A stretch of DNA of 64,000 nucleotides, taken from the NCBI GenBank assembly GCA_044892525.1, contig CM097885.1:12092001-12156000 (forward strand). Reading direction: 5' to 3'. How positions within the stretch are numbered: position 1 is the stretch's first letter; each line of letters begins with the position of its first letter. The translations under genes and the position numbers were made by a program. Below the pieces are notes generated by a model. The model did not search any database. It saw only the letters and a program-made list of their open reading frames with translations, and was not told where the DNA came from. Origin of the DNA: Schmidtea polychroa (taxonomy: Eukaryota). Below, piece after piece: positions 432 through 58,535 of this stretch.

Positions 432-2329
432 CATTTTAAATTATTGATCAATATTTTCAATAATCTGAAAAAATGAAGATCAAAGAAATTGAATTTTTTT
501 CTCTGACTATATTTTTGAGGTTGTAAAAATGAAGAGATTTAAATAACTATTGCAAGAAAATAATTAACAATAAGTAACAGTAAAAAAAATAAAATAGTTA
601 AAGTACAATGGGAAAAATCAGAAAAGAAACGAAATGGTGATAAATGAAGAAAATTGGAAGATAAGATAATAAATGTAAAAAGTTAATAAAATATTGGTTA
701 ATTTATGTAAAAATGGATTAAGTAAAAAACAAACAAAATTAATTAAGTGTAAGAGAAGAGAATAGAAAAGAAACGAAAACAAATGGCAAGTAATTATTGT
801 CGAATAAATGGTAATACATAATATATCAAAAAAGCTTAAAAAACTATGGAACATATTAGATAACGAAAAATTGCAAAAGTATCAATAATTAAAACAAAAT
901 TAAATCTGAGTAAAATGAAAACGGAAAAGGGATAAACATAAAATAAATACAATGTAAATTGAAAGGAAATCAGTAGTGAAAATTAAAAAAAAGTTCTTAT
1001 ATATTAAAATTATTTATAAAGAAACTTTCAAATCTTTAACTAAATAATAATTTGGATTTTTTAAGGATGTGCGCTCTACACAGGATTTTTAAGTAAGAAA
1101 AAAGGTTATTTCAATATTTTGATTTTTTACAATTATATTTTTGATTTAGATGAATTGTTTTAATAATGTATCATTTTCTTTTTAAACATTACAAACGTCT
1201 TCACACGTATACTGGAGACTCATCTTCATTGAAATCATTGCTGATAAAATTTATATGTTTAATTTCGGTTTGTCACAACTCCACAAATCAAAAATAATTG
1301 AAGATACTACTGAGGATATCTAAATAATAAAATTAAATTGTGAAATGAATAATAAAACGAACAACAAAGAAAGAAAAGAGGATTTCCTACTAAATTGATG
1401 CAAGTAGTGTAAATAAATTATTAATAAAGAGTGTTTTACTAATTGTCGGTTCAGCAGGAATAGTTGAGGGATCGTATATCTGAAATTGTTATTAAATAGT
1501 GCTATTCTTCACAAAGTGTTGTAATAAATACTTGATATCAATTGGTTTTGGTCCTGAATACTTAATTATATATTTTTTATATCCCGTATTTTTCTTTGAA
1601 AATCCATATAATCATAGCTACACTAATTGATTTTCACAATATTATTCTAAAGACTGCAAATACTTGCAGATTTATTTTAAAATTTAAGAATAATTTTAAT
1701 ATTTCGGGAATTATGGCATTATTGAATTTTAAAAATTATTGGCTAAATTAACAAGTGTCTCAAAATATGGGATGTTTGTTTTAATAATATTTAATTAAAA
1801 ACTCTGTAAATGTTTGATTGTTTTGATGTAAAACTTTATAATTGCTTTGGTTTTGATGGATACTGATATTCTAAATATGGTAAAAACTAATAAATATATA
1901 AAAACTAAATATATAAACTAATAATAAATTTAACTAAAAATATTTACAAAGTTTTTTAAATAATTTTAATATTTAAATGAAAAATGGATCATCTTTTTTC
2001 GGTTATTTAAATATAATATTGATAATATAATATAATATTATTTAAAATAATAAAATATGATAATAATTGCGATATAATTATTATAGTATAACAACAATTA
2101 GCTGAATCTACTTATTATTTTATTTTCAAAGGATTATCTACTGACTACCTTAAGTAATATATTAAAAAAGTAATAAATTTTAATTTTTATAGATCATTAT
2201 GATCATTATGAAATAAAGTTTAATTCTAAATTTTATATAGATATTATAGCTAAATAGTAGGTAGATAGTAGCCCACTGCTGCAACTTTTTTTTGCTGCAA
2301 CTTTTTTTGCTGCAACTTTTGATTACGCA

Positions 2330-3290
2330 ATTTTTCAGACTATAGTGAGGGGGTCTCGATGGTCCTGGGATTTTCAATACAAAAAAATTTTTTCAATACA
2401 AAAACGATGGTCCTGGGATTTTCAATACAAATAAAATTTTTTCAATACAAAAAGGCGGTCTCACTAAAAAAGCATGGAATTTTCAGACTATAGTGAGGGG
2501 GTCTCGATGGTCCTGGGATTTTCAATACAAAAAAAATTTTCTATACAAAAACGATGGTCCTGGGATTTTCAATACAAAAAAAATTTTCTATACAAAATCC
2601 GACTACCAATAAAAAAGCATGGATTATTCACGCTATAGTGAAGGGGTCTCGATGGTCCTGGGATTTTCAATACAAAAATTTTTTTTCAATACAAAAAGCT
2701 GGTCTACACTAAAAAAGCCAAGGAATTTTCAGACAATAGTGAGGGGGTCTCGATGGTCCTGGGATTTTCAATACAAAAAACTTTTTTCAATACAAAAATC
2801 CGACTATCAATAAAAAAGCATAGAATTTTCAGACTATAGTGAGGGGGTCTCGATGGTCCTGGGATTTTCAATACAAAAAAAATTTTCAATACAAAAACGA
2901 TGGTCCTGGGATTTTCAATACAAAAAATTTTTTTTCAATACAAAAACGATGGTCCTGGGATTTTCAATACAAAAAATTTTTTTCAATACAAAAAGCTGGT
3001 CTACACTAAAAAAGCCAAGGATTTTTCAGACTATAGTGAGGTGAGTCTCCTTGGTCCTGAGAAATAGGTGGTCTACACTAAAAAAAACGTGGTAATTTAA
3101 GGTCTCAGGATATTTTCAATACAAAAAGCTGGTCTACACTAAAAAAGCATGGTAATTTAAGGTCTCAGGATATTTTCAATACAAAAAGCTGGTCTACACT
3201 AAAAAAGCCAAGGATTTTTCAGACTATAGTGAGGTGAGTCTCCTTGGTCCTGAGAAATAGGTGGTCTACACTAAAAAACGTTGTAAATTT
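2330..3290 (+). repeat. Left subterminal modular tandem array
   Basis: Recurrent modules ACTATAGTGAGGGGGTCTCGATGGTCCTGGGATTTTCAATACAAAAA and GGTCTACACTAAAAAAGC. Confidence 0.9.
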
Positions 3291-3294
3291 TTCA

Positions 3295-3960
3295 ATTACA
3301 GTAAATTATGGTCCTAAAAATTAAATTAAAGTAAATAATGGTCCTAAAAAATTAAATTACAGTAAATTATGGCTCAAATTTTTAAATTACAGTAAATTAT
3401 GGTCCTAAAAAATAAATTACAGTAAATTATGGCTCAAATTTTTAAATTACAGTAAATTATGGTCCAAATTTTTAAATTAAAGTAAATAATGGTTCTAAAA
3501 ATTGAATTACAGTAAATAATGGTTCTAAAAATTAAATTAAAGTAAATTATGGTTCTAAAATATTAAATTAAAGTAAATAATGGTCCAGATTTTTCAATTA
3601 AAGTAAATAATGGTCCAAATTTTAAAATTAAAGTAAATTATAGTCCTAAAAAATTAAATTACAGTAAATTATGGTCCAAATTTTTCTATTACAGTTAATT
3701 ATGGTCCTAAAAAATTAAATTAAAGTAAATTATGGTTCTAAAAATTAAATTAAAGTAAATTATGGCTCAAATTTTTCAATTACAGTAAATTATGGTCTAA
3801 ATTTTTAAATTAAAGTAAATTATGGTCCTAAAAATTAAATTAAAGTAAATTATGGTTCTAAATTTTAAATTAAAGTAAATTAAGGTTCTAAAAAATTAAA
3901 ATAAAGTAAATTAAGGTCCAAATTTTAAATTAAGTAATCAATGGTAAAAAAATTTTAAAT
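3295..3960 (+). repeat. ~30-bp minisatellite (mirror copy at ~17400-17950)
   Basis: About 20 copies of AATTA(C/A)AGTAAATTATGGTCCTAAAAATTA variants. Unit order differs between the two arms. Confidence 0.9.
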
Positions 3961-4284
3961 AAGTAAATTAAAGTAATAATTTTTAAATTAAGTAATCAAT
4001 GGTAAAAAATTTTAAATAAGTAAATTAAAGTAAGATTTTAAAATTTAATTACAAAAAGTTGAAGGTGTTTGAGAATTGAAATTTTTTAATGAAAATTTTC
4101 AATGGTAATTTTTAATGAAAATTTTTATGGAATATTTTTTTTAAGTAATTTTTAATAGAAAATTTTATGAAATATTTTTCAATGGTAATTTTTAATGGAA
4201 ATTTTTATGAAATATTTTTCAATGATAATTTTTAATGGAAATTTTTAAGAAATATTTTTCAAAGACAAATTTTAATAATAATTC

Positions 4285-5660
4285 AACAACAAATCAACAA
4301 CTTAGTACCAACAACCAGTAACTTACGAACATGTATTACCAACCAGATACCTACAACCAGTTACCTGATACCAAGTACCAACAACCAAAAACATGCAACC
4401 AACTAGGTACCAAGTACTAACAACTAACTACCACCTACCAAGTACCTACAACCAACTACTAAGTACTAACAACCAAAAACAACCAACTAGGTACTAGATA
4501 CCAAGTACTTACAACAAACATCAACCAAGTACTTACTACCAACTACCAAGTACTTACAACTAGTTACTAACAACTAGTTACCTGCTACCAAGTACTTACA
4601 ATTAGTTACTAACAACCAGTTACCTGATACCAAGTACCTACAACCAACTACTAAGTACTAACAACAAAAAACAACAAAGTACCTACAACAAATTACCAGA
4701 TACCAAGTGCCTACAACTAGTTACTAACAACTAGTTACCTGATACTAAGTACCTACAACCACCTAACAAGTACTAACAACCAAAAACAAGCAACCAAACA
4801 GGTATCAGATACCACCTACTAAGTACCAACAACCAACTAGTTACCAGATACCTACAACTAGATACTAACAACTAGGTCTCAAACAACTAAATACTAACAA
4901 CCAGGTACTAAGCATTATCAACCAACTAAATACTAAGTACTAACAACCAACCAGTTACCTGATACCAAGTACTTACAACTAGTTACTAACAATCAGATAC
5001 CTACAACTAGTTACTAACAACTAGTTACCTGATAGCAACCAACTAGGTACCAGATACCAAGTACTAACAACCGCCAACAACCAGATACTTACAACTAGTT
5101 ACTAACAACCAGTTACCTGCTACTAAGTACCTACAACCAACTAGCTACCACCTACCAAGTACTAACAACTAGATACTAACAACCAGTTACCCATTAACTA
5201 GCTACCAACTACTAAGTACCTACAACCACCTACCCATTAACTAGCTACAACCAGTTAACAACTAGCTACCACCTACCAATTAACTAGCTACAACCAGCTA
5301 ACAACCAGTTACCTGCTACCAAGTATTTACAACTAGTTACTAACAACCAATTACCTGCTACCAAGTACTTACAACCAACATCAACCAGGTACTAAGCATC
5401 ATCAACTAGATACCAAGTACCTACAACCAACTAGCTACCACCTACCAATTAACTAGCTACAACCAGCTAACTAGGTACTAGATACCAAGTACCAACAACC
5501 AGTTACCAACTACTAAGCATTAATTACCTACAACTAGTTACTAACAACTAGATACCAAGTACATACAACCAACATCAACCAGGTACTAGATACCAAGTAC
5601 TAACAACCAAGTAACTTACCTAGTAATAAGCACTGTCAACTAGATACCAAACAATTACAA
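4285..5660 (+). repeat. A/C-rich patchwork satellite (mirror copy at ~15725-17100)
   Basis: Shuffled short words AAGTAC, AACAACC, CTAGTTAC, GATACC with strong strand skew. Confidence 0.85.
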
Positions 5661-5990
5661 CCAGATGACCACATGAAATTAATGGTTAAATATGAAAATA
5701 AGGATTATATTTAGTTGTTAAGTAAATTATGGTGTAAAATTAAGAAATAAAGAATAATTAGGTAAATTAAAGTAATAATTTTTAAAAAAGTAAATTAAGG
5801 TTCAAAATTTTAAATTAAAGGAAACAATGGTTTAAATTTTAAATTAAAGCTAAATGAGTAAATTAAAGTAATAATTTTTAAATAAGTAATGTAATAAGTA
5901 AATTAAACTAAGATTTTTAAATTTATTATCAAAAGATTGAATAACCACCAACTTTTTTGAGAAATGTAATTTTTAATGAAAATTTAAATG

Positions 5991-6045
<55 letters not shown>

Positions 6046-6453
6046 AATAATTCAACAGTTACCAACAATCGGTTACTAAATATTTTTAACTAGGTGCTAA
6101 CAAATACTTACAACATGATACCACGTACTAACTAACTCTCAAACAACCAGATACTTACAACTAACTACTAAATATTCTTCACTGTATTTTATGAAATGCT
6201 TTTTAAATTAATTTTTTATCTATCTTCAAAAATATATTTAATTACAATCATTAGAAAAACCTTTTCAAATTTAACAAAAATGTTGATTTTCATCAAAAAA
6301 CCACAACTCATCACCACGTGGAATTCAAAATAATTTTAATTATAATGAAAGACTAATGAATTCTAATTTGCAAAACATTCTTCTTTTAAATGATAACTAC
6401 TGACTTATTATTGCAAAGTAAAAATCGCATTCAATAAATACTTATTATATATA

Positions 6454-9400
6454 CTCTGAGTTTATCCGACAGGATGTTTTGACCCCCTAAGGGTACTGGT
6501 CGTAAGGGTATTAGTCGTAAGGGTACTGGTCGTAAAGGTACTAGTCGTAATGGTATTGATCACTCTCAATCCCCACCTACTCATTAATTAGCTACCATGT
6601 ACTAACCACTAGGTTTCAAACCACTAAATACTAAACACTTACAACCATGTACTAACAACCACCATCAAAACCCATCGAGAAATTAACAAATATCAACCTA
6701 CAACTAGATACTTACAACCAGATACCTGCTACCAAGTACTTACAACAAGATACCAAGTACCAACAATCAACTAACCACACATAAAAATAATAGCAATTAA
6801 ATACAAAATATTCTTCATCACATACAATATCTTCTTATCAAAATCTAAAAAGTCAATCAGATACCAACTACCAAGTACCAAGTACTAACAACCAACTACT
6901 TACAACCAACAACTATGTACTAACAAATTGATCTTTAAAAGCAAATACTCATCACTTGAAAAAATTAGATGAAAAATTAATTGAACTCAAGGCACTTTTA
7001 AGATATTTGAACTCAAGGCATCAATAACTTGGTAAAAATTGATTAAATTATTGTAAAAATTTAAATTATTCAAAATATACTAAATTAAAAAAATATAATT
7101 AATAGACAAGAAAGAACTTTAAATTCTAGTCATTGATCATTCAAGTTAATATGAATCAACTAAGATAATAAATTAATAAGAATTTTGAAATAAGATCTAG
7201 TAGATAATTGATTTAGATTGAATAAATTAATTTAAATAAAATTAAATTTAATTATTTTTTGTAAAAGTAATACATGTACTCAAATTGATTGACTGATTTC
7301 TCAATATATTCAAAAAATCAGTATAAATTCATTACAATTATCAAAGTCATCAATCTACAATAAAAATAATTATCATAAAATTCCAAAAGACACTGATAAC
7401 TAATGATAACATCTAATAAACCAGTAAATTAATTTAAATGACAATAATTGGTATATCCTAGTGAATTCTCCAATTTCTCATTTCCTCCCAAATATATCAA
7501 TATGTAAAGATTGGTATTGTAATGATAAATACTTGTTAAAGATCATATATTCACCTCGAACTAACAAGATTCCTTAAAATCCCTCAAATGACTATATTTC
7601 TACCCTTAATTCATATTATTACAAATATTTCACTAAAATCATCTAAAAAGCATCAAATTTCATTGAAATAACTCTATCTTTTAAGATTGATATTTTAATG
7701 ATAAGTACTTGTTAAAGATCATATATTCCCCTCAGACTAATAAGATTGCTTAAACTCCCCTTTAAATGACTATAATTCTAACTTTAATTCCTATTATCAT
7801 ACATGTTTCACTATTGATAAAACCAGTTATAATTAAATTTTTGTTAATCACTGTAAATTTTTGTAAATCACTGTACTTGAAATTTAAAATAAATATAACT
7901 GACTAGGTCCCATTGAAAGATTAAATTTATCCATTCAATAAAATATATTTCTTCAAATGATCATTTTACCGATATTCAACCGATTTAATTACTAATTAAA
8001 ATCAAGATTTTTTCCAATAAAGATCAATTTTATTTAGTCGATGTTTTAAGTCCATATTTCTCAACTTTTGTCATTCTCCGCCTAAATAAAGATAAAAATA
8101 AATTAAAGTTGATATCAATCCCAATTATCTGTAAAGATTTCATTGTCAAAACCAAGTAAATCGATCATTATCCCTACTTAATAAAACATTGTTCTAAATT
8201 AATTTACTGTGCATTAATCACAACCTAATAAAACGATATAATTATTATTGATTCATAACTGACTAATGTATTGCAATTTCCTTAAAAAAACATTGATATT
8301 TTACCAACATCACCCTTAAAAAATCATATATTCCCATCGAAACCCTTCCCTCATTAAAAGCAACCGACTATATCTCCCTTACAATAATATATTCCCATCT
8401 TAGCCCATCTCACATTAAATCTAACCGACTATATCCCCTTAAAAGATCATATTTTCCCCATCTTAACCGACCTCTCATTAAATCTAACCGACTATATCCC
8501 TTTAAAAATCGTATATTCCCATCTTAACCCATCCCTCATTAAATTTAATAACCGACAATATCCCATCTTATCCGATCTCTCAGCAAATATTTCTACCCTT
8601 TTAAACATCTAACCGAATATATCCTTCAATTCTACCCACTTGAATCCTCCTTTAATTCAATTCAGTCTTAAAATCTTTAAAGAACTTCAAAAATATGACT
8701 TAATTGTTATAGACACCAAATATTCTTCCATTGAAATAATTTAGTAGCTATGTAGTAAGAGTTCACTAAAAGATCAAAAATCAATATTTTCTACAAATAT
8801 TTACCATCAAATACTGGAGATGATATATATTGATTGATCATAATTCTTCATCGATTCAACCAATCATTTTCAAGCAATAATAGCAAACTACAATCATTTT
8901 CAAGTAAGTTAACTGGTTTCTTAGCTTATGTTTTTTAAAGTTCATCAATGAGTAAATATTCTTAGAAAAATATTGAAAACATTATTTAGTCAAATACATT
9001 ACAAAGTTATCATCAAAAATCACTTAATTATTAACCTAATTGTCAATGAAATTAATTTTTATTTAAAAACTATTCAATAAAATACAACTAATTATCAAGA
9101 AATTAATTAAATTTATCATAGAACTAACTTTAAATATTCATTCAATAAACATGAAATTCACAAAAAACGATAAAAATTCACAAAAATAATAGAAATTCAC
9201 AAAAATAATAGAAATTCACAAAATTGATAAAAATTCACAAAAAACGATAAAAATTCACAAGAATGATAGAAATTCACAAGAATGATAAAAATCCACAAGA
9301 ATAATAGAAATTCACAAGAATGATAGAAATTCATAAAAATGATAGAAATTCATAAAAATGATAGAAATTCACAAAAAAGATAGAAATTTACCTGAATAAA

Positions 9401-9572
9401 ACCATCAACTCTAAAAATTATCAACGAATGCCTTATACAAATTTGCTTAAATTCAAATAAAAAACATTAAATACCTTTACGACTAATACCCTTGCGACAT
9501 GTTGAATGTGAGTAGTACCCTTGTGAGCAATACCCATAGGGGGACAGAATATTTTGTCGGATAAACTCAGAG
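6454..9572. mobile_element. Nested ~3.1-kb non-coding TIR element, left-arm copy
   Basis: Perfect 18-bp TIR CTCTGAGTTTATCCGACA (6454-6471) / TGTCGGATAAACTCAGAG (9555-9572). Subterminal 15-bp repeats GGGTA(C/T)T(A/G)GTCGTAA occur in inverted orientation at both ends. Flanked by TATATA on both sides. Confidence 0.75.
9150..9390 (+). repeat. ~19-20-bp minisatellite (mirror copy at ~11955-12190)
   Basis: Tandem GATAGAAATTCACAA(A/G)AAT variants. Confidence 0.85.
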
Positions 9573-10144
9573 TATATATTAATTAACTCATTTTTCATTG
9601 AATTAGTCAAATTATCATAAATTTCGATAAAAAATCTAAAGTGGTAAGCAATGTAAAGAGAAATATTCTTTAAACTTTGATAAAATTAACAATGAAGGTG
9701 GTAAGAATCTTCATTAAAGTGAGGAAATTACTCGATGATAAATTCAAATGGGTGAAAATAATTGGTAGAATAATTCATTAATGGATCATTGAATGGGCAT
9801 AGATAAGAAGAAGGTTGATAAGAATGGAAATATATTATTTAAAATTATTTCATAAAATTCATAAATTTAATAAAAAAAAACAAATATTTGTGGGGAATAA
9901 TTAATCAAAATCGGGGGGATATTAGTGATTAATTAATGGAAAATAGAGAATCGGGGAATATAAGTGAATAATTAATGGAAATTCTAGGGAATACAAATGA
10001 TTAAATAGTGGAAATCGGGGGAATATAGGAGATTAAATAGTGGGATAATGAGAATCGGTGGAATATAAGTGAGAAGGATATGTAATTTAAACTATTTTAT
10101 TACGTAACAAGCCATGACTAGTTTATTGCATAACAAGCTGTGAA

Positions 10145-10947
10145 CGGGATTTTATCAACATTTTACCTAGTATGTACTTTAATTTTTATTGTATTTTTAA
10201 ATTGTATATATTTTCAATATCATTCTATTGTTTTATTCCAATAATAAGTTTAAAAAGTATATAATGATTAATAAATTAATATCGTGTTAACATTTATTTG
10301 AGAATTTAAAAAACTTTACTTAAAATTTAGTGAAATATTTAATTTTGATTGTATTTTATAAGACATATATTTGAGTATTTACTTATTTTGATTGAAGTAT
10401 TATATTCAATATTATGATGATTTTTTTTTTCTAAATTAAAATATTTTAGTGTAAAATAGTAAATTTAATAATGAATAGAATACAATATTAAAGGACTTTT
10501 TAAAAAGAAAAATTACTTTCTATTACCTAATTTCATCATTAAGTTTAAGAAGTCTATAACTGTTAATAAATCAATTTCTTATTCACATTTTCTTATAAAA
10601 TTTATATTTTTAAATTTAGTGTAAAGAATTTAATTTTAATTGTATTTTATAAGTCATTTATTTGAATATTTATCTTATTTTTATTGAAAGGAGTAATATA
10701 ATTAATAATATGATAATTGTTTTTGAAATATTTAGTGTAGAATAATAAATTTATTAATAAATAATTATTACAAAATTAAAGGACTTATACAACAAAATTT
10801 TTGTCTTATTCCATAAAAAAGTTTTAAAGTATATAACTGGTAATAAATTAATTTCTTATTTAAATTTATTTAAAAAAGCTTTACTTATAAAATTTGTATT
10901 TTCTAAGATATATATTTGAATATTCAACTTATTTTGAATGAAAAGGG

Positions 10948-11026
<79 letters not shown>

Positions 11027-11171
11027 TATTATTTTCTTTTATGATAATTGTTTTTGAAATACATAATGTAAATTAAAACATTTTAGTATTAATTAGTTAT
11101 TATTTTAGAATTTATTTTAGTCAAAAATTTAAAAAAATAAGACCTATTCCATATTTCTTATTCAAAAACCA
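10145..11171. repeat. Non-palindromic central spacer with three degenerate ~290-bp direct repeats and a (TA)n tract
   Basis: Arm similarity stops at ...AACAAGCTGTGAA (10144) and resumes at TTCACAGCTTGTT (11172). The motif TTGTATTTT..AAG..AT..ATTTGA.TATT..CTTATTTT recurs near 10350, 10640 and 10895. (TA)n lies at ~10950-11020. Confidence 0.7.
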
Positions 11172-11770
11172 TTCACAGCTTGTTATGTAATAAACTAGTC
11201 ACGGCTTGTTATGTAATAATCTAGTCGCGGCTTGTTACGTAATAAAATAGTTTAAATTACATATCCTTCTCACTTATATTCCACCGATTCTCAATACCCC
11301 ACTATTTAATCTCCTATATTCCCCCGATTTCCACTATTTAATCATTTGTATTCCCTAGAATTTCCATTAATTATTCACTTATATTCCCCGATTCTCTATT
11401 TTCCATTAATTAATCACTAATATCCCCCCGATTTTGATTAATTATTCCCCACAAATATTTGTTTTTTTTTTATTAAATTTATGAATTTTATGAAATAATT
11501 TTAAATAATATATTTCCATTCTTATCAACCTTCTTCTTATCTATGCCCATTCAATGATCCATTAATGAATTATTCTACCAATTATTTTCACCCATTTGAA
11601 TTTATCATCGAGTAATTTCCTCACTTTAATGAAGATTCTTACCACCTTCATTGTTAATTTTATCAAAGTTTAAAGAATATTTCTCTTTACATTGCTTACC
11701 ACTTTAGATTTTTTATCGAAATTTATGATAATTTGACTAATTCAATGAAAAATGAGTTAATTAATATATA

Positions 11771-14700
11771 CTCCTAGTCTATCCGACAAAATATTCTGTC
11801 CCCCTATGGGTATTGCTCACAAGGGTACTACTCACATTCAACATGTCGCAAGGGTATTAGTCGTAAAGGTATTTAATGTTTTTTATTTGAATTTAAGCAA
11901 ATTTGTATAAGGCATTCGTTGATAATTTTTAGAGTTGATGGTTTTATTCAAGTAAATTTCTATCTTTTTTGTGAATTTCTATCATTTTTATGAATTTCTA
12001 TCATTTTTATGAATTTCTATCATTCTTGTGAATTTCTATTATTCTTGTGGACTTTTTTCTTTCTTGTGAATTTCTATCATTCTTGTGAATTTTTATCGTT
12101 TTTTGTGAATTTTTATCAATTTTGTGAATTTCTATTATTTTTGTGAATTTCTATTATTTTTGTGAATTTTTATCGTTTTTTGTGAATTTCATGTTTATTG
12201 AATGAATATTTAAAGTTAGTTCTATGATAAATTTAATTAATTTCTTGATAATTAGTTGTATTTTATTGAATAGTTTTTAAATAAAGATTAATTTCATTGA
12301 CAATTAGGTTAATAATTAAGTGATTTTTGATGATAACTTTGTAATGTATTTGACTAAATAATGTTTTCAATATTTTTCTAAGAATATTTACTCATTGATG
12401 AACTTTAAAAAACATAAGCTAAGAAACCAGTTAACTTACTTGAAAATGATTGTAGTTTGCTATTATTGCTTGAAAATGATTGGTTGAATCGATGAAGAAT
12501 TATGATCAATCAATATATATCATCTCCAGTATTTGATGGTAAATATTTGTAGAAAATATTGATTTTTGATCTTTTAGTGAACTCTTACTACATAGCTACT
12601 AAATTATTTCAATGGAAGAATATTTGGTGTCTATAACAATTAAGTCATATTTTGAAGTTCTTTAAAGATTTTAAGACTGAATTGAATTAAAGGAGGATTC
12701 AAGTGGGTAGAATTGAAGGATATATTCGGTTAGATGTTTAAAAGGGTAGAAATATTTGCTGAGAGATCGGATAAGATGGGATATTGTCGGTTATTAAATT
12801 TAATGAGGGATGGGTTAAGATGGGAATATACGATTTTTAAAGGGATATAGTTGGTTAGATTTAATGAGAGATCGGTTAAGATGGGATATTGTTGGTTAGA
12901 TTTAATGAGAGGTCGGTTAAGATGGGGAAAATATGATCTTTTAAGGGGATATAGTCGGTTAGATTTAATGTGAGATGGGTTAAGATGGGAATATATTATT
13001 GTAAGGGAGATATAGTCGGTTGCTTTTAATGAGGGAAGGGTTTCGGTGGGAATATATGATTTTTTAAGGGTGATGTTGGTAAAATATCAATGTTTTTTAA
13101 GGAAATTGCAATACATTAGTCAGTTATGAATCAATAATAATTATATCGTTTTATTAGGTTGTGATTAATGCACAGTAAATTAATTTAGAACAATGTTTTA
13201 TTAAGTAGGGATAATGATCGATTTACTTGGTTTTGACAATGAAATCTTTACAGATAATTGGGATTGATATCAACTTTAATTTATTTTTATCTTTATTTAG
13301 GCGGAGAATGACAAAAGTTTAGAAATATGGACTTAAAACATCGACTAAATAAAATTGATCTTTATTGGAAGAAATCTTGATTTTAATTAGTAATTAAATC
13401 GGTTGAATATCGGTAAAATGATCATTTGAAGAAATATATTTTATTGAATGGATAAATTTAATCTTTCAATGGGACCTAGTCAGTTATATTTATTTTAAAT
13501 TTCAAGTACAGTGATTTACAAAAATTTACAGTGATTAACAAAAATTTAATTATAACTGGTTTTATCAATAGTGAAACATGTATGATAATAGGAATTAAAG
13601 TTAGAATTATAGTCATTTAAAGGGGAGTTTAAGCAATCTTATTAGTCTGAGGGGAATATATGATCTTTAACAAGTACTTATCATTAAAATATCAATCTTA
13701 AAAGATAGAGTTATTTCAATGAAATTTGATGCTTTTTAGATGATTTTAGTGAAATATTTGTAATAATATGAATTAAGGGTAGAAATATAGTCATTTGAGG
13801 GATTTTAAGGAATCTTGTTAGTTCGAGGTGAATATATGATCTTTAACAAGTATTTATCATTACAATACCAATCTTTACATATTGATATATTTGGGAGGAA
13901 ATGAGAAATTGGAGAATTCACTAGGATATACCAATTATTGTCATTTAAATTAATTTACTGGTTTATTAGATGTTATCATTAGTTATCAGTGTCTTTTGGA
14001 ATTTTATGATAATTATTTTTATTGTAGATTGATGACTTTGATAATTGTAATGAATTTATACTGATTTTTTGAATATATTGAGAAATCAGTCAATCAATTT
14101 GAGTACATGTATTACTTTTACAAAAAATAATTAAATTTAATTTTATTTAAATTAATTTATTCAATCTAAATCAATTATCTACTAGATCTTATTTCAAAAT
14201 TCTTATTAATTTATTATCTTAGTTGATTCATATTAACTTGAATGATCAATGACTAGAATTTAAAGTTCTTTCTTGTCTATTAATTATATTTTTTTAATTT
14301 AGTATATTTTGAATAATTTAAATTTTTACAATAATTTAATCAATTTTTACCAAGTTATTGATGCCTTGAGTTCAAATATCTTAAAAGTGCCTTGAGTTCA
14401 ATTAATTTTTCATCTAATTTTTTCAAGTGATGAGTATTTGCTTTTAAAGATCAATTTGTTAGTACATAGTTGTTGGTTGTAAGTAGTTGGTTGTTAGTAC
14501 TTGGTACTTGGTAGTTGGTATCTGATTGACTTTTTAGATTTTGATAAGAAGATATTGTATGTGATGAAGAATATTTTGTATTTAATTGCTATTATTTTTA
14601 TGTGTGGTTAGTTGATTGTTGGTACTTGGTATCTTGTTGTAAGTACTTGGTAGCAGGTATCTGGTTGTAAGTATCTAGTTGTAGGTTGATATTTGTTAAT

Positions 14701-14928
14701 TTCTCGATGGGTTTTGATGGTGGTTGTTAGTACATGGTTGTAAGTGTTTAGTATTTAGTGGTTTGAAACCTAGTGGTTAGTACATGGTAGCTAATTAATG
14801 AGTAGGTGGGGATTGAGAGTGATCAATACCATTACGACTAGTACCTTTACGACCAGTACCCTTACGACTAATACCCTTACGACCAGTACCCTTAGGGGGT
14901 CAAAACATCCTGTCGGATAAACTCAGAG
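11771..14928. mobile_element. Nested TIR element, right-arm (inverted) copy
   Basis: Reverse complement of 6454-9572, with an extra ~40-bp repeat unit near 12865-12905 and a variant inner TIR CTCCTAGTCTATCCGACA. Confidence 0.75.
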
Positions 14929-15330
14929 TATATATAATAAGTATTTATTGAATGCGATTTTTACTTTGCAATAATAAGTCAGTAGTTATCATTTAAAAGA
15001 AGAATGTTTTGCAAATTAGAATTCATTAGTCTTTCATTATAATTAAAATTATTTTGAATTCCACGTGGTGATGAGTTGTGGTTTTTTGATGAAAATCAAC
15101 ATTTTTGTTAAATTTGAAAAGGTTTTTCTAATGATTGTAATTAAATATATTTTTGAAGATAGATAAAAAATTAATTTAAAAAGCATTTCATAAAATACAG
15201 TGAAGAATATTTAGTAGTTAGTTGTAAGTATCTGGTTGTTTGAGAGTTAGTTAGTACGTGGTATCATGTTGTAAGTATTTGTTAGCACCTAGTTAAAAAT
15301 ATTTAGTAACCGATTGTTGGTAACTGTTGA

Positions 15331-15396
<66 letters not shown>

Positions 15397-17954
15397 CCAT
15401 TTAAATTTTCATTAAAAATTACATTTCTCAAAAAAGTTGGTGGTTATTCAATCTTTTGATAATAAATTTAAAAATCTTAGTTTAATTTACTTATTACATT
15501 ACTTATTTAAAAATTATTACTTTAATTTACTCATTTAGCTTTAATTTAAAATTTAAACCATTGTTTCCTTTAATTTAAAATTTTGAACCTTAATTTACTT
15601 TTTTAAAAATTATTACTTTAATTTACCTAATTATTCTTTATTTCTTAATTTTACACCATAATTTACTTAACAACTAAATATAATCCTTATTTTCATATTT
15701 AACCATTAATTTCATGTGGTCATCTGGTTGTAATTGTTTGGTATCTAGTTGACAGTGCTTATTACTAGGTAAGTTACTTGGTTGTTAGTACTTGGTATCT
15801 AGTACCTGGTTGATGTTGGTTGTATGTACTTGGTATCTAGTTGTTAGTAACTAGTTGTAGGTAATTAATGCTTAGTAGTTGGTAACTGGTTGTTGGTACT
15901 TGGTATCTAGTACCTAGTTAGCTGGTTGTAGCTAGTTAATTGGTAGGTGGTAGCTAGTTGGTTGTAGGTACTTGGTATCTAGTTGATGATGCTTAGTACC
16001 TGGTTGATGTTGGTTGTAAGTACTTGGTAGCAGGTAATTGGTTGTTAGTAACTAGTTGTAAGTACTTGGTAGCAGGTAACTGGTTGTTAGCTGGTTGTAG
16101 CTAGTTAATTGGTAGGTGGTAGCTAGTTGTTAACTGGTTGTAGCTAGTTAATGGGTAGGTGGTTGTAGGTACTTAGTAGTTGGTAGCTAGTTAATGGGTA
16201 ACTGGTTGTTAGTATCTAGTTGTTAGTACTTGGTAGGTGGTAGCTAGTTGGTTGTAGGTACTTAGTAGCAGGTAACTGGTTGTTAGTAACTAGTTGTAAG
16301 TATCTGGTTGTTGGCGGTTGTTAGTACTTGGTATCTGGTACCTAGTTGGTTGCTATCAGGTAACTAGTTGTTAGTAACTAGTTGTAGGTGTCTGGTTGTT
16401 AGTAACTAGTTGTAAGTACTTGGTATCAGGTAACTGGTTGGTTGTTAGTACTTAGTATTTAGTTGGTTGATAATGCTTAGTACCTGGTTGTTAGTATTTA
16501 GTTGTTTGAGACCTAGTTGTTAGTATCTAGTTGTAGGTATCTGGTAACTAGTTGGTTGTTGGTACTTAGTAGGTGGTATCTGATACCTGTTTGGTTGCTT
16601 GTTTTTGGTTGTTAGTACTTGTTAGGTGGTTGTAGGTACTTAGTATCAGGTAACTAGTTGTTAGTAACTAGTTGTAGGCACTTGGTATCTGGTAATTTGT
16701 TGTAGGTACTTTGTTGTTTTTTGTTGTTAGTACTTAGTAGTTGGTTGTAGGTACTTGGTATCAGGTAACTGGTTGTTAGTAACTAATTGTAAGTACTTGG
16801 TAGCAGGTAACTAGTTGTTAGTAACTAGTTGTAAGTACTTGGTAGTTGGTAGTAAGTACTTGGTTGATGTTTGTTGTAAGTACTTGGTATCTAGTACCTA
16901 GTTGGTTGTTTTTGGTTGTTAGTACTTAGTAGTTGGTTGTAGGTACTTGGTAGGTGGTAGTTAGTTGTTAGTACTTGGTACCTAGTTGGTTGCATGTTTT
17001 TGGTTGTTGGTACTTGGTATCAGGTAACTGGTTGTAGGTATCTGGTTGGTAATACATGTTCGTAAGTTACTGGTTGTTGGTACTAAGTTGTTGATTTGTT
17101 GTTGAATTATTATTAAAATTTGTCTTTGAAAAATATTTCTTAAAAATTTCCATTAAAAATTATCATTGAAAAATATTTCATAAAAATTTCCATTAAAAAT
17201 TACCATTGAAAAATATTTCATAAAATTTTCTATTAAAAATTACTTAAAAAAAATATTCCATAAAAATTTTCATTAAAAATTACCATTGAAAATTTTCATT
17301 AAAAAATTTCAATTCTCAAACACCTTCAACTTTTTGTAATTAAATTTTAAAATCTTACTTTAATTTACTTATTTAAAATTTTTTTACCATTGATTACTTA
17401 ATTTAAAATTTGGACCTTAATTTACTTTATTTTAATTTTTTAGAACCTTAATTTACTTTAATTTAAAATTTAGAACCATAATTTACTTTAATTTAATTTT
17501 TAGGACCATAATTTACTTTAATTTAAAAATTTAGACCATAATTTACTGTAATTTAATTTTTTAGGACTCTTATTTACTGTAATTGAAAAATTTGAGCCAT
17601 AATTTACTTTAATTTAATTTTTAGGACCATTATTTACTGTAATTTAATTTTTTAGAACCATAATTTACTGTAATTTAATTTTTTAGGACCATAATTTACT
17701 GTATTTGAAAAATTTGGATCATAATTTACTGTAATTTAATTTTTTAGGACCATTATTTACTGTAATTCAATTTTTAGAACCATTATTTACTGTAATTGAA
17801 AAATTTGAGCCATAATTTACTTTAATTTAATTTTTAGAACCATAATTTACTTTAATTTAAAAATTTGGACCATAATTTACTGTAATTTAAAAATTTGAGC
17901 CATAATTTACTTTAATTTATTTTTTTAGGACCATAATTTACTGTAATTGAAAAA

Positions 17955-18715
17955 TTTACAACGTTTTTTAGTGTAGACCACCTATTTCTCAGCACCAAGG
18001 AGACTCACCTCACTATAGTCTGAAAAATCCTTGGCTTTTTTAGTGTAGACCAGCTTTTTGTATTGAAAATATCCTGAGACCTTAAATTACCATGCTTTTT
18101 TAGTGGTAGTCGGATTTTTGTATTGAAAATATCCCGAGACTTTAAATTACCATGCTTCTTTATTGAAGACCGCCTTTTTGTATTGAAAATATCATGAGAC
18201 CTTAAATTACCATGCTTTTTTATTGATAGTCGGATTTTTCTATTGAAATTCTCAGGACCAAGGAGACCCACCTTAATTGACCTAGAAAAATCCATGCTCT
18301 TTTAGTGATAGTCGGATTTTTGTATTAAAAAATTTTTTTTGTATTGAAAATCCCAGGACCAAGGAGACCCACCTGAATTGACCTAGAAAATTCCATGCTT
18401 TTTTAGTGGTAGTCGGATTTTTGTATTGAAAATCCCAGGACCATCGAGACCCCCTCACTATAGTCTGAAAATTCCATGCTTTTTTATTGATAGTCGGATT
18501 TTTGTATTGAAAAAAATTTTTTGTATTGAAAATCCCAGGACCATCGAGACCCACCTGAATTGACCTAGAAAAATCCATGCTTTTTTAGTGGTAGTCGGAT
18601 TTTTGTATTGAAAAAATTTTATTTGTATTGAAAATCCCAGGACCATCGTTTTTGTATAGAAAAAATTTTTTTGTATTGAAAATCCCAGGACCATCGAGAC
18701 CCCCTCACTATAGTG
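17955..18715 (-). repeat. Right subterminal modular tandem array
   Basis: Reverse complement of the left-array modules, plus a module (CCCACCTGAATTGACCTAGAAAA) not seen in the left array. Confidence 0.9.
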
Positions 18716-18936
18716 TGATAAAAAAAAATTTGTACCAAAAATCCCTGAAAGCAAAAAATGTGAGTTGGAACAATTGCGTAATAAAAAGTTGGAACAATTT
18801 TACCCCCCCTGGGGGGGGGGGTAATTGTTCCAGTGCGCTACTATCTACCTACTCTAAATATTTGCTTTTTTTGAGTGCAATAAAATATTTTTTTTGAACT
18901 AATATTAACAAGAATTTTTTGCCCGTATAAATTTAC

Positions 18937-40110: not shown

Positions 40111-40680
40111 GGGGGAACGTACCTGTATCGTAATATGACTTCTTAACTATATCGTAAAGATAGAAATGGACCAATATCGTAAAAGTTAAAAATGGAACAA
40201 TATTGCAAAATTGAAAAATGGATCTATATCGTAATCTGTATATTATAGAGAAATAGAGAGTTTTTTTACGATACAGATAGTGGCAATGACTAAGTTGTTG
40301 TTATATAATTGTAGGTTAATATTTGTTAATTTCTCGATGGGTTTTGATGGTGGTTGTTAGTATCTATTTAATGGGTAGGTGAGGTTGAGTGTGACCAATA
40401 CCCTTACGACCAGTACCCTTCGACTAATACCATTACGACCAGTACCCTTATCACCAGTACCCTTAGGGGGTTAAAACATCCTGTCGGATAAACTCCGAGT
40501 AAATTCATTAACAAATGAAAAATTTATTGGATTATTAGTATACTCATTTAATTGGGATTGCAGGATATTATTTTGTTTTTTAATTTACGATATTAATTAA
40601 CATTGCTTCTTACGATACAGAATTTTCACGATATAATTCCCATATTACGATAAGTTTTTTTACGATACAGGTAGTGGCAA
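40111..40680. mobile_element. MULE-like non-autonomous element carrying a terminal fragment of the nested TIR element
   Basis: 10-bp direct repeat TCTTCCTATG at 40101-40110 and 40681-40690. Subterminal inverted repeat TACCTGTATCGTAA / TTACGATACAGGTA and many TATCGTAA motifs. The interval ~40310-40499 matches 14680-14928. Confidence 0.7.
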
Positions 40681-48954: not shown

Positions 48955-49761
48955 TTATGCAACTGGCGGCTCATTTGACGCAGAATGTATTCGTACGAAA
49001 TTCGACGGATCCTTGTTTTTATCTGATAAATCTTCTGAATGAGGCAAACGGTTTAATATTTCATTTAACTGACAATTTAATTTTTCTATTTCTTGTTTTA
49101 TATGATTAGTTTGAGATTTTATTTCGTTGGTTGATTTTTCAATTGACTTTTCAATTGTTGAAACAATTATTTGATTGAGTATTGTCATGTCTATTTGAAT
49201 AGTTTGAGATTTATTTGTCGTAGAATCTGTCACTGATTTTGAATGATCTTCTTCGTCTTCTTCTTTTATTGTTTGACCTTCAATTTGTGACTTTTTGTTG
49301 ATTAGCCTATTCCATTTCGGAACGTTTTGGCTGATCGAATGAGACGGTTTAACTTCGACTTTCTGTAAGTTGTTTCCAGGAGATATGAAACTGAACTCAG
49401 TTTTTTGAACTGGTTCTGGATTAGAATCTGTTGGAGAAGGAGGAGTTGGAGCAGTTTTGTTTTTGTTTCCAAACATCCCTGACCATTTGTTGACTTTGAC
49501 TGCTGGGGTGTCCGGCGGAGGATCAGGTGGATGAGGTCCATCATCGTCAGGAGTGCTGTCAGACATAATACTTGTCACTGACTGACGACGACCCTCGCCG
49601 AATTCTGAATTGGACCCTCTCGGCGCATCGGCCTTCTTAAATCGAGAAAGTAATTTTCTTACAGCATGATCAGCAGCTAAATTATTTAAAGGGGGATCAT
49701 TTTTTCTTCTTTCAGCAAGTTCTTTTTCTTTTTTGACATCGGCAATTTTACGAAACAATAT
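48955..49761 (-). CDS. eag: EAG-family K+ channel, terminal exon (post-CNBHD region, low-complexity linker, predicted coiled coil)
   Basis: Acceptor tttag|ATA. ILFRKIADVKKEKELAERRKNDPPL...DHAVRKLLSRFKK resembles the Kv10/eag post-CNBHD segment. Stop TAA at 48955. Confidence 0.9.
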   Translation of the reverse strand: MLFRKIADVKKEKELAERRKNDPPLNNLAADHAVRKLLSRFKKADAPRGSNSEFGEGRRQSVTSIMSDSTPDDDGPHPPDPPPDTPAVKVNKWSGMFGNKNKTAPTPPSPTDSNPEPVQKTEFSFISPGNNLQKVEVKPSHSISQNVPKWNRLINKKSQIEGQTIKEEDEEDHSKSVTDSTTNKSQTIQIDMTILNQIIVSTIEKSIEKSTNEIKSQTNHIKQEIEKLNCQLNEILNRLPHSEDLSDKNKDPSNFVRIHSASNEPPVA

Positions 49762-49798
49762 CTAAATATATATTTATATAAAAATGATTATAATAATA

Positions 49799-49981
<183 letters not shown>

Positions 49982-50011
49982 GTGATGATTTCTTGGTAGC
50001 AGCATTTATTA

Positions 50012-53262
<3,251 letters not shown>

Positions 53263-54084
53263 TTAAAGAGAAGAATCACATTATATATATTTTTATCCGA
53301 ACAAAAATAAAATGAACTATAAAAATAAAATTCTGAAAACTTAATCCACTTAAATGACAGGAATGAGATGAAGTGAAAAAGGAACTCTTCCTGTTTATTG
53401 AAGGTATTTTAAGAAATCAAGCAAATTAATCTTGTTTTAGTTTTTGATCGGTATTTAGAATTTTAATTTTTATTAATTTGGCATCATTTAGTCTTTTTTT
53501 AATATTCATAGTTGGCTTGTAAAATACCCTTCTGAATTCAACTTTATTTTCCATTTAATAATTGTTTTATTTAAAACAAAATTATCTTTTTTTACACAAT
53601 AATTTCCATAGAAATAGAAATTTGATCAAGTATTACCATGATCAAAACCCTCTTATGTTTTATTAAAAATTTTTTAATCTGTAATATATTTATATTCTTC
53701 TGATTGACGGTCTCACTTATAAAATTGAATAGTTCAAGCCGATTATAGTCGCGATAACTGGTTATGGTTAAAGGGAAGGATACTGTGGTGAAAATAAAGG
53801 AACATGGAAAACCAATGTTCAACTTTAATTAAAAAAGAAAGTACCCCATTAACATATACATAACTCGAATTAAATTTGGGTTTATAATTAATTACCGCAA
53901 ATTAAAAATTAAACCATGTGCTTAATTTCTGACAAATTAATAATGTTATAAAATAAATTAATTAAAAATAATAAAAATAGTTAATTGATTTAAAAGCCAG
54001 ATTTAATTAAAATTAATTACAATTAATTAAAAATTAATTAAAATTAATTAAAAATTAATTAAAATTTTTAAAAATTATTCCTAC

Positions 54085-54281
54085 CCTTTGTCTCAAATTA
54101 TATGTCAGCAATAGATTTCTGGAGAATGAATTGGCAAATGTATGATGAAATTCTAGGACGCTTTGCAGCTTATCTCTTTTAATACAATGCAAATCACAAT
54201 ATGTCAGTGCACGAATAGTGGCAGTTGAAGGACTCGTATGTTTGTCTTTCCAACTATAATCACCAAATATGTCATCTTTTC
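54085..54281 (-). CDS. eag: EAG-family K+ channel exon (CNBHD C-terminal part)
   Basis: aag|GA...AGG|gtagg; translates (G)KDDIFGD...[17 protein letters not shown]...[14 protein letters not shown], including the YNL intrinsic-ligand motif. Confidence 0.93.
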
Positions 54282-54330
54282 CTTAAATTTAATTAATAAT
54301 CATTAATAATTCATTGAAAATTTCAAATAC

Positions 54331-54583
54331 CTAAAATCGCTACTATTTCATCGTCTTGTATTACTTCTAACGATCCAGAAACAATGAAACACAATTGGTC
54401 AACACTTTCTCCTTGGTGGTATATCAAATCTCCAGGAGCTGTATGTAGGGTTGTAAAGTTTATGGCAAGAGCTCTCAAACACCCGTCGCTAGCTAATCTA
54501 AATGCTGGGTGTTCATTGAATACCATTCTATTAAGATGAACACATAGATCAGCTTTCATATCTTTGGGACAGTAGTTAAGTAC
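54331..54583 (-). CDS. eag: EAG-family K+ channel exon (C-linker/CNBHD)
   Basis: tag|GTA...TTAG|gtattt; translates [19 protein letters not shown]...[13 protein letters not shown]...[15 protein letters not shown]. Confidence 0.95.
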
Positions 54584-54628
54584 CTATTCAAACACATGTT
54601 ATTAATCATATCGTTTGTCTCATTTAAC

Positions 54629-54828
54629 CTTCGCCGGGTCGATTCCTTTCGTAATTGCCCATGTTGACGTTACATAGTCGATAACTCTCTCACATAACTC
54701 TTTTTTTACATCATGTATTTTTAGGAAATCCTTTATACTTTTCATCATTTCATTGTATCTAGACCGATTGGCATACATTTCAGATACTATTGTCGTTACA
54801 TTACCAAAGATCGCTGCATATATCAATG
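54629..54828 (-). CDS. eag: EAG-family K+ channel exon (S6 end and C-linker)
   Basis: tttag|CA...AAG|gttaaa; translates ALIYAAIFGNVTTIVSEMY...ERVIDYVTSTWAITKGID. Confidence 0.95.
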
Positions 54829-56532
54829 CTAAAAGTAAATATCTATAAATTATTTATTAGAAAACGGGAAAGAAATAAATCTTTATTGTTTTCGATTTGG
54901 GAAACAACCTCAGTTAAAACTATAGTTTTTATTTGACAGGAAATCGATAAATATGTGCCTTATTTGCAAATTAAAAATATGTTTAAAATTTTTAAAAATT
55001 TTAAAAAAATTTTAAAAACATTTATAAATTAAATTAATAAAATTAAATTATAAAATAAATTAAATTGAATTGATTTTTTGCAATAAGTTAAACTATTTTA
55101 TTTAACCAAATTTTACATAGGTAAATGTTGAAGAAAAATACAATTTGGAAAACCTATTATTATTATTGTAACTACTATCTGCAAGAGCCTTTTATAAGAC
55201 ATTGGTAACTCACGCTGTAATGCTTCAAAGGGTGATTGTTTCGTATTTTATTTTTCATACAATATTTACACTTGCACACATCTATATATTTACCGCTTAC
55301 AAATAATAATAAAATGTATAAACGTAAACATATTTACATTTTCAACTAATTTTGGATATAAGGTATTCCTAAGAAATGAAGTAAATTTTAAAACATTCGA
55401 TTTATACTGATTTTTAAACTTATCCTGGATACCGACAGAATGTCAAATGTTCTTACTTGCATAGTGTCAGCGGGGTCAGCAAATACTTTTCAATGAACTC
55501 ACTGCCCTCTTTACAATAACTTAAAATTAACTCAAAAATGTGTGGTCATTTGTCATTTTAATGAATATGAATAGTCTAGTTTTTTAATTAGATCAATCGA
55601 AAGAAAAAAAAAGAAACAGTAAATTGGCAGTTAATGAATTTTGATGATTGACAAATAACTTACTGTGATAGAATGAATGTTAGACTAAAATGTTATTTTT
55701 TAAAAATACTTGAAAAAAATTGTAATGAAATTGGAATCGAGCTGTGTGTTTTATTTATATAAGAAGAATCGAAATGATCGATTGATAAAATTGGTTTATT
55801 TTGATTGGTGAATATGCGGAAACTGCAATGATAAATAAATCAATAACAGTTGAAATTGTAATCTAGTTAACTTTGCTAAAGAATAAAATTGCTTAGAATA
55901 GATTTTAAAAAAGTTGCATATTTTCAAGAAAATGTTTTTTTAACTTGTTTGGTTTTTGACGTTACTTAAAAGAAAAATTGGGATCCAGTAAAATAACTGA
56001 CTACGAAAGAATTTGTAATAATTTTTAAAAAAATATTAAAATTAACATTTATCAGTGAATCAAAAATTTCATTCTTTTTAAAAAAGATTTCTTATAAATT
56101 TGATAAATTAAAGTTTTCTACTAAATAAATATTCAATGGATTTTTTATTTGTTTATTTATTTACTATTTAAACTATTCATTGAAATCTCCATTGTGGACA
56201 TATGTTTTCTTTAGAAATTATTTGATAGCATTTGGTGAAAAACTATTAAGAAATTAATTTTTTGTTTGTTGTTTGTTAATATTATTTTAGAAAAATTATG
56301 CTTCATTTTTATATGTAATAATGACCATGCATAATTATAATCATATTTCGTTTCGCAGAATAAATTTGCATTTTTCCCATTAATCTTGTAGAAATTTCTA
56401 CTCTTAACACTGTAAATGTATTGGTAAAAATAATATATAAATTACTCTTAGTTACAAAGAAAAAACTAAAAATATCTAATACAAAAATGTTATAAAATTA
56501 TTTTAATACATTGTTGAAAAATGAATTAATTA

Positions 56533-56598
<66 letters not shown>

Positions 56599-56719
56599 GC
56601 AACAATTTTAAAAATAATTAAAACTTTATGTTGTTTGAAAATTTAAATAATGTTTAAAAAAATTGGATAAAATTATAAACTGAATGGTAAATTTAATATA
56701 AAATTTAAAAAAAAAGAAT

Positions 56720-57447
<728 letters not shown>

Positions 57448-58091
57448 TAATAATATTAATATTAATAATAATTACAATAATAATAATTAGTAACGATATA
57501 ATTTAAATTTGCAATATTTATAAAAATTCTAAACAGTCTGTAAAATTTTATTAATCATAGTTCTAATTATACAATTTATTTAATTTAGTATTAATAGAAC
57601 TAAATTTGAAACTCAATTTATATGTCAACAATATTCAATTTTCAGCATATTTAACAATCAATATTTATTTTATTTCTCCAATTAATGTTTTCACAATCTT
57701 TGCATCTTTTAAGTTTTAAATAATTTTATATAATTTTTATTAATTAATTTTTATTCTATGCTTTGCATGTAATACATGATGCAATGTTCGCTCAGAAACA
57801 TATTTTATTTTGTGTTTTATAGATTTCAGTTTTGCAAATATTTTCTTTGTTTTATGTTGATTGTGACTGTGCCCCAATATATAGGACTTATGTGCTATAC
57901 TAATTACAAGGCCAGCGAGTTTAGGTTCTTTGAAGATATTAAAGTTTAGTTAATGAGTGTAATTTTATGATAAAAGTGCTTCTCTTTTGTATTTTTTGAA
58001 AAACACATTTAATATTGGAGTATCCATTTTAATGTAGGGTTTTGTTAAATATTTTTATTGTGTACAATCACTGTCTTTTTCGGTGAAACTA

Positions 58092-58535
58092 GTGACTACC
58101 TCACTGAACCGGTATTGTGTAATTTACGCGCCTACTGCCTTCCGTGGATGTGGTAGCCGTTTTTCAGGCTCCCTCTCCGGAATCGAACACTGATTCTTCA
58201 TTTCTCGTTACAACCATGGTAAGCGTTTATCTTACCATCGAAAGTTGATAGGTCAGCCATTTTAAGAGATATGTCGTCAGCACAAAGGTAAAATTATCCA
58301 GAGTCATCAAAATACCGTATTTCAATTGGTTGATTTTGATCTAATAAATCCGCCGCTTCGTGAGTCACGGCATTCTTAAAAATATGAATTATCTTGTGGC
58401 AAAATGATAGAATCTCTCAAATCATAGTTGTTATAATGAGTCATCCGTGGTTTCAGAATACTAGTCTGTGTACTAAGATATTCATGGCTTAATCTTTGAG
58501 ATAACCATGTGACTACTGGCAGGACCAACCAGATA
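58092..58535 (-). pseudogene. Degraded 5' fragment of 18S rRNA in a channel intron
   Basis: The minus strand starts TATCTGGTTGGTCCTGCCAGTAGTCACATGGTTATCTCAAAGATTAAGCCATG (18S 5' end). It includes TATCAACTTTCGATGGTA and GATTCCGGAGAGGGAGCCTGA, and is mutated and truncated. Confidence 0.93.

Follow-up and report, generated by a model that had tools for sequence, protein, structure and literature searches.

A multi-copy palindromic element of Schmidtea polychroa is probably a helper-dependent Polinton satellite with the layout of copy-back defective viral genomes

Introduction

Gene-less derivatives of Polintons exist, and other replicons that are copied by protein priming give rise to palindromic hairpin or duplex deletion forms, such as the defective palindromes of adenovirus and the hairpin derivative of the kalilo plasmid. 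Foldback (FB, Galileo-like) transposons typically have modular, satellite-rich long inverted repeats; they use cut-and-paste transposases and make target-site duplications of other lengths than the one described below.

Polintons (Mavericks) are 15-25 kb long and carry pPolB and an integrase (PMC6431247), end in AG...CT and are flanked by a 6-bp duplication (PMC6431247, PMC3014272); their pPolB includes the terminal protein, and they are regarded as endogenous viruses (PMC11161782). Reported Polinton terminal repeats measure 584 bp in a lizard (PMC3014272) and 744 bp in C. elegans (10.1101/2024.01.15.575659). Protist elements have short terminal palindromes (10.64898/2026.07.28.741278), which are a different thing from the whole-element palindrome described here. 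The available portions of planarian papers name Polintons/Mavericks just as a repeat class (PMC8532177, 10.64898/2025.12.11.693146). Copy-back and snap-back genomes are described mostly for RNA viruses; in them one end is mirrored around a loop, both ends are retained and propagation depends on a helper (PMC13506859). Within the full-text literature searched, itself accessible in part, we found no description of a whole-element palindromic Polinton; Repbase, Dfam, subscription papers and supplements lay outside that scope and may list the family.

Here we describe a palindromic element in a window of 64,000 nt, the whole stretch of DNA analyzed (C1:12092001-12156000, where C1 is contig CM097885.1), from the 781-Mb genome of Schmidtea polychroa. 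The family to which it belongs resembles Polintons/Mavericks (class Polintoviricetes) and their non-autonomous derivatives in its ends, duplication, size class and homologous terminal repeat, but it is gene-less, consists to 94% of inverted repeat rather than carrying repeats of 584 or 744 bp, has not shrunk to MITE size and outnumbers its helper. With copy-back and snap-back defective viral genomes it shares the retention of both ends, a probable reliance on a helper and the mirrored end around a loop, a layout that is found in literal form in gene-bearing relatives; unlike those genomes, it is integrated, inherited and present in hundreds of copies, and its inner arms are non-viral. The same replication chemistry is expected for the palindromic derivatives of adenovirus and kalilo, but these are transient and are not known to form integrated families. 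Long satellite-rich inverted arms and a central loop also recall the FB and Galileo-like transposons, although the partner here is an element with pPolB and integrase.

Results

The palindromic element spans window positions 2256-18853 (16,598 bp) and is bracketed by CTAAAT hexamers at 2250-2255 and 18854-18859, a 6-mer match with a chance probability of ~0.001 at the local composition. Its termini read AGTAGGTAGATAGTAGC[C/G]CACTG, alike over 23 bp with one mismatch. The inverted repeat accounts for 93.8% of the element, with a left arm of ~7.9 kb (2256 to ~10145), a right arm of ~7.7 kb (~11168-18853) and a loop of ~1.0 kb. An earlier note on this DNA had given ~94% inverted repeat, arms of ~7.9 and ~7.7 kb, a ~1-kb spacer and a CTAAAT target-site duplication, and our measurements bear these figures out. 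Identity between the arms is 98.6-100% per 500 bp in the inner 5.5 kb and 82-90% in the outer 1.5 kb. The DNA flanking the element on the left is unrelated to that on the right; therefore, the symmetry ends exactly at the duplication.

Read inward on the plus strand, the left arm is modular. Its outer part (2256-4285) is the Polinton terminal inverted repeat common to the gene-bearing helpers, 73-85% identical to both ends of gene-bearing copies; it comprises the 23-bp terminus and, as resolved by TRF, satellites of ~50-145 bp (2334-3255), a 30-bp satellite (3280-4050) and a 13-bp satellite (4074-4276). A C/A-rich degenerate 7/14-bp satellite follows (4286-5655, by TRF), a filler that the helper does not have and whose length ranges among copies from ~0.2 to 2.0 kb per arm. 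In the next segment (5665-6440), as TRF and comparison with the helper showed, the inner end of the terminal repeat occurs a second time, along with (AAT)20 and unique filler. Beyond it lie a 3.1-kb block (6445-9580) with inverted ends that are 77% alike over 111 bp and with 61-bp and 19-bp satellites, and the innermost arm (9581-10147), which has 32-bp and 26-bp repeats at its end. The A+T-rich loop (10148-11167) is single-copy, contains a 71% internal direct repeat and (AT)40, and serves as a marker of the family. On the minus strand, the right inner arm (11168-17102) mirrors 4286-10147 at 98.6-100% over most of its length, and the right terminal inverted repeat (17103-18853) is a variant that differs from the left one in the outer 1.5 kb, as given above. 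A subterminal C-run/G-run hairpin at 18788-18835 (minus strand; z = -4.3 for the terminal 100 nt) is present at most family and helper ends and absent from the left end of the window copy.

The earlier note held that the element encodes nothing recognizable, and our searches led to the same result. The longest ORF, stop to stop, is at most 118 aa, and tblastn with eight helper proteins detected no remnant in the window copy or in 10 other copies. The genes of an autonomous Polinton/Maverick (pPolB, rve integrase, ATPase, capsid and protease) were absent from the element by both ORF inspection and tblastn, and a search of the element against Rfam returned no family above noise; SRP/7SL RNA gave no match in this copy even when E values up to 1 were admitted. 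The note also placed a nested TE in the arms. The 3.1-kb block, which is present in each arm, does have inverted ends, but all six sampled matches of its end motif, which occurs 6,338 times genome-wide in exact form, were inside the same gene-less palindrome family. Among the listed matches in the first 9.5 Mb of C1, this motif often occurs in outward-facing pairs separated by ~1 kb, a possible sign of additional palindrome subfamilies. A solo copy of one end of the block (86%) lies outside any palindrome at window 40360-40504.

Elsewhere in the window, a gene for a voltage-gated potassium channel (Ion_trans), which we take from its motifs to be EAG-like, has exons at 48955-63863 on the minus strand; the palindromic element lies ~30 kb downstream of this gene. 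The interval 49800-53300 contains a GIY-YIG fragment and an 80% inverted repeat (49822-50396 versus 52674-53259), and is probably a decayed Penelope-like element.

The terminal 23-mer had 528 exact matches in the genome (reversed control, 0), two variants of the 23-bp end had 349 and 111, and a loose 17-bp end motif had 5,065. A 20-mer from the loop (at 10360) matched exactly 453 times, indicating at least 453 copies with the loop motif. Both ends were read in 40 gene-less copies, among them that in the window; the 6-bp duplication was perfect in 36, had one mismatch in one and was lacking in three, one of these with inverted flanks; its sequence varied between copies. The search that had been proposed, for other palindromic copies with different 6-bp duplications, was in this way answered in the affirmative. 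Module order was identical in all 11 whole copies first compared, two of which carry large deletions, one of them together with a retroelement-like insertion. Contigs in Logan from runs X3 and X4, which may be the source of the assembly itself, bridge the left junction of the window copy with 0-1 differences. Contigs from runs X1 and X2, representing a diverged allele, match the flank to position 2256 and continue with 108 other letters (not themselves displayed), as a possible empty site would.

Several loci of the family stood out individually. One copy (C1:12035669-12052823) lies just 41 kb upstream of the window element, and another tandem pair lies at C1:52185941 and 52204354. The duplication TATGGT recurs at three loci (C1:29620477, 30052336 and 83933929), at one of them at the right end only, which suggests that a filled site was duplicated or that ectopic exchange took place. 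At C1:116199592-116214261, the flanking hexamers are reverse complements with no direct repeat; a larger inversion or an assembly fold-back is possible there.

The earlier note interpreted the ends as Polinton-type and called for autonomous elements that share them. pPolB genes are numerous in this genome (91 scored among 8,822 candidates), and copies with pPolB, rve integrase, an A32-type ATPase and a likely capsid do carry the same 23-bp ends. In the helper that we examined (C1:1836403-1853479; 17,077 bp, duplication TTAGTT), the genes are pPolB, an rve integrase with a chromodomain, the A32-type ATPase, a TBP-like ORF and a probable double-jelly-roll capsid ORF. Pfam gave no capsid and no polymerase-B match among the helper ORFs, nor did NCBIfam or PDB sequences. 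The polymerase label derives from the genome-wide scoring of pPolB candidates; the probable capsid assignment derives from an ESM Atlas feature match (0.98), with the family on 16% of members and recognition just below threshold. The scan of this helper copy revealed no protease gene. The TBP-like ORF (PF00352, E 5e-16; L063:5874-6386) is head to head with the ATPase. Within the surrounding interval C1:1827339-1855000, the gene-bearing Polinton interrupts a gene-less palindrome of a related family.

The terminal repeats of the helper correspond to the outer 2 kb of the window arms at the identity given above. The rest of the arms had no match to this helper except the short internal duplicate of the terminal repeat, and the filler, ~12 kb of the element, and the loop are not derived from it. 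The gene-less element is therefore not wholly parent-virus-derived, as its matches to this helper lie just in the outer 2 kb of each arm. A 24-mer from the helper ATPase gave 256 matches, fewer than the satellite loop. Helper proteins are 98-100% identical between copies, which indicates recent activity. The first 151 Mb of C1 yielded 69 end pairs, and in these each of the two end variants was present on gene-less as well as on gene-bearing copies. Four gene-less and three gene-bearing copies had mixed-variant ends, with the duplication intact in six of the seven (four gene-less, two gene-bearing). Because the end variants are common to both classes and mixed on both, the satellite is tied directly to the helper; as judged from these sequences, ends and outer 2 kb have apparently been swapped between gene-less copies and Polintons of 16-18 kb. 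The family accordingly combines shared termini, 6-bp duplications that differ between copies, and dispersed non-coding copies, three features of a non-autonomous Polinton derivative.

The two arms of a copy are far more alike than the same arm in different copies. At four non-satellite markers, median arm-to-arm divergence within a copy was 0% (at most 1% in 21-24 of 23-28 copies), compared with 4.3-7.2% between copies. Across 26 left arms, distances at markers 0.6-4 kb apart were scarcely correlated (Mantel r -0.12 to 0.25, P<0.05 in one of six pairs), whereas odd and even columns within a marker, taken as a control, gave r of 0.76-0.89. Since the distances at one marker fail to predict those at another, the copies are mosaics, and both arms of a copy carry its mosaic. 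Asymmetry was concentrated at the ends: counted from the end inward, 13, 11, 6, 6, 4, 4, 3 and 4 of 27 copies were asymmetric per segment, the first two segments being the halves of the terminal repeat. Nine copies were fully symmetric. The asymmetric portion was a single block from the end in 9/14 asymmetric copies and patchy in 5/14. Two pairs of copies at distant sites had 99-100% of their inner-arm 21-mers in common.

Gene-bearing relatives with a plain copy-back layout, 10-17 kb long and flanked by duplications, substantiate the comparison with copy-back genomes that the earlier note had drawn. In a 17,433-bp palindrome at C1:216068162-216085594 (duplication TATGAT), both arms track the helper from its ATPase end to 8.4 kb, and the loop corresponds to helper 8.4-9.1 kb. 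Palindromes of the ATPase/integrase end at C1:140241038-140252554 (11.5 kb) and C1:174745706-174755842 (10.1 kb) each have a 6-bp duplication, as does one of 12.6 kb formed from the polymerase end. Three palindromes of ~16 kb contain the polymerase gene in both arms (C1:126056156-126072149, C1:14588190-14604110 and C1:87508561-87524337); their padding is non-helper sequence, partly common to the window family. One idea, that such polymerase palindromes represent head-to-head dimers with a closing terminus at the center, was dropped because in two copies (the first two loci) the loop is a ~300-bp mini-element of two Polinton ends, one of them truncated. Two further inverted polymerase pairs had no central terminus in the sequence tiles examined. 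A third type of end could not be maintained as a single class, since four sampled copies comprised two polymerase palindromes and two gene-less elements; together with one earlier copy, three of five carried the polymerase.

Gene-less copies had a median length of 16.7 kb (quartiles 16.0-17.3, range 10.7-36.6, n=35). Helper copies with a single ATPase match measured 16.1-18.1 kb (median 17.5, n=14, a set that omits three copies with several ATPase matches), and copies with the third end type had a median of 15.8 kb (n=41). Another 17 end pairs were unclassified; nine that were sampled, all 14-17 kb, were gene-less. The closeness of the gene-less lengths to those of the helper is real. Only one of the 69 end pairs spanned less than 8 kb. 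Among 28 spans obtained by pairing the first 100 of the 5,065 loose-motif ends with no check for duplications, 10 were 7-14 kb, 11 were 14-18.6 kb, seven were longer and none was below 7 kb. In 27 of 28 copies, one being omitted for a deletion, total length varied less than expected from shuffled segments (SD 832 versus 1,103 bp, P=0.018); with a control for picking copies of 14-18 kb, this compensation was not significant (P=0.085), and the copies are related to one another.

Discussion

We conclude that the window element is almost certainly a multi-copy, helper-dependent Polinton satellite, and that it is likely built in the manner of a copy-back defective virus genome. The gene-less family keeps just the ~2-kb terminal repeat of the helper at both ends; the remainder is host-like satellite filler. 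Against this reading stand the filler and loop, which do not come from the helper examined, and the helper copy scanned, in which no protease gene was identified. The earlier note proposed that the whole palindrome integrated as one unit by means of a helper integrase and a protein-primed polymerase. The 6-bp duplications uphold integration as one unit; the part assigned to helper enzymes is what we infer.

We envisage that the terminal-protein-primed polymerase of the helper would replicate the satellite in the form of a free linear molecule, starting at either of its ends, and the helper integrase would then insert this molecule. Satellite molecules may recombine with one another and with helper ends, producing mosaic arms and mismatched outer ends; single crossovers between molecules would swap the outer part of one arm. 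A fold-back step would then remake one arm from the other and restore symmetry, either because the polymerase switches to the strand just made or displaced, or through repair of a displaced strand that has annealed to itself. Recombination followed by such re-symmetrization during replication is in our judgment the probable source of the mosaic symmetric arms. Similar patterns could be produced by chromosomal gene conversion between copies and between arms, and the five patchy asymmetric copies and the three copies that lack a duplication, one with inverted flanks, do not fit the model well.

What sets the length is less clear, and two explanations deserve weight. Adenovirus and phi29 replicate by two-ended strand displacement. 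If polymerases starting from both ends of a Polinton meet in mid-genome and switch template there, a palindrome of about unit length would result and would afterwards regenerate its own length by descent, and no capsid would be needed. A Polinton-derived polymerase displaces strands processively (PMC3511435), and the turn of one gene-bearing copy-back, at 8.4-9.1 kb, falls midway along a helper of 17.1-17.5 kb. Other copy-backs, 10-12.6 kb long, turn earlier, and this geometry leaves the 12 kb of non-helper filler in the gene-less family unexplained. We give length by replication geometry or descent even or slightly less than even weight.

Alternatively, the capsid may set the length, such that just genomes of near-unit length are packaged and spread between cells and the satellite has been padded to helper size. 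The earlier note had suggested a constraint of this kind on packaging or replication. In its favor are the lengths of the three groups, the near absence of short members (one pair of 69 below 8 kb), the 12 kb of filler, the ATPase and likely capsid of the helper, and the reduced spread of total length. The last of these was borderline after the selection control, among related copies; 10 of the 28 loose-motif spans, their duplications unchecked, fall at 7-14 kb; and clean duplications also flank palindromes that measure 10.1, 11.5 and 12.6 kb, from which it follows that unit length is not required for integration. Lengths just under that of the helper therefore survive from the suggestion, and a strict requirement does not. 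We regard length set by the capsid as possible and incline against it; a softer advantage in spread for near-unit length is also possible.

Arm-to-arm conversion is a known behavior of long palindromes, as on the Y chromosome, and the element could be an ordinary non-autonomous Polinton whose arms were homogenized and shuffled after insertion by conversion between arms and between copies. The patchy asymmetry in 5/14 copies and the right end and flank common to two of the TATGGT loci are compatible with this. However, insertions and deletions confined to one arm persist, siblings with the same mosaic occur at different sites with different duplications, and copy-backs of helper sequence indicate that the symmetric form was made and inserted as such; we consider post-insertion conversion improbable as the main explanation. 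That the element is a foldback-type cut-and-paste transposon of another superfamily with merely Polinton-like ends is very improbable: its modular, satellite-rich arms are typical of foldback elements, but its ends and outer 2 kb are common to, and mixed on, copies that bear pPolB and integrase, and the gene-bearing elements found with these ends were Polintons, with no DDE cut-and-paste partner among them. Long palindromes are a known long-read artefact and one other copy has inverted flanks, yet an assembly fold-back is hardly credible for the window element, because at least 453 copies have the loop motif and 36/40 have perfect duplications of their own, and in view of the unrelated flanks, direct 6-bp repeat, 1-kb loop and outer-arm differences, and of contigs from two runs, possibly the source runs, that bridge the left junction.

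Returning to the helper-dependent satellite, the replication of animal Polintons and their formation of particles have so far been inferred mostly from gene content. With a high-copy palindromic satellite and its recently active helper side by side in the same genome, observation can be used to test these questions, since fold-back intermediates, the turn points of copy-backs, limits on length and the exchange of ends between helper and satellite can be read from the DNA. If whole, the 453 or more copies, each near 16.5 kb, would amount to ~1% of the genome, and with ~5,065 related ends, such long palindromes matter for assembly, annotation and genome stability. A bolder reading, which we put forward as rather doubtful, is that these elements are a class of defective-interfering genomes, derived from an animal DNA virus, that are integrated and heritable: gene-less and self-complementary, of unit length, packaged in Polinton capsids, recombining with their helper as a free population and outnumbering it. 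If this were true, the satellites would be a record of animal Polintons replicating outside the chromosome by fold-back and spreading as particles.
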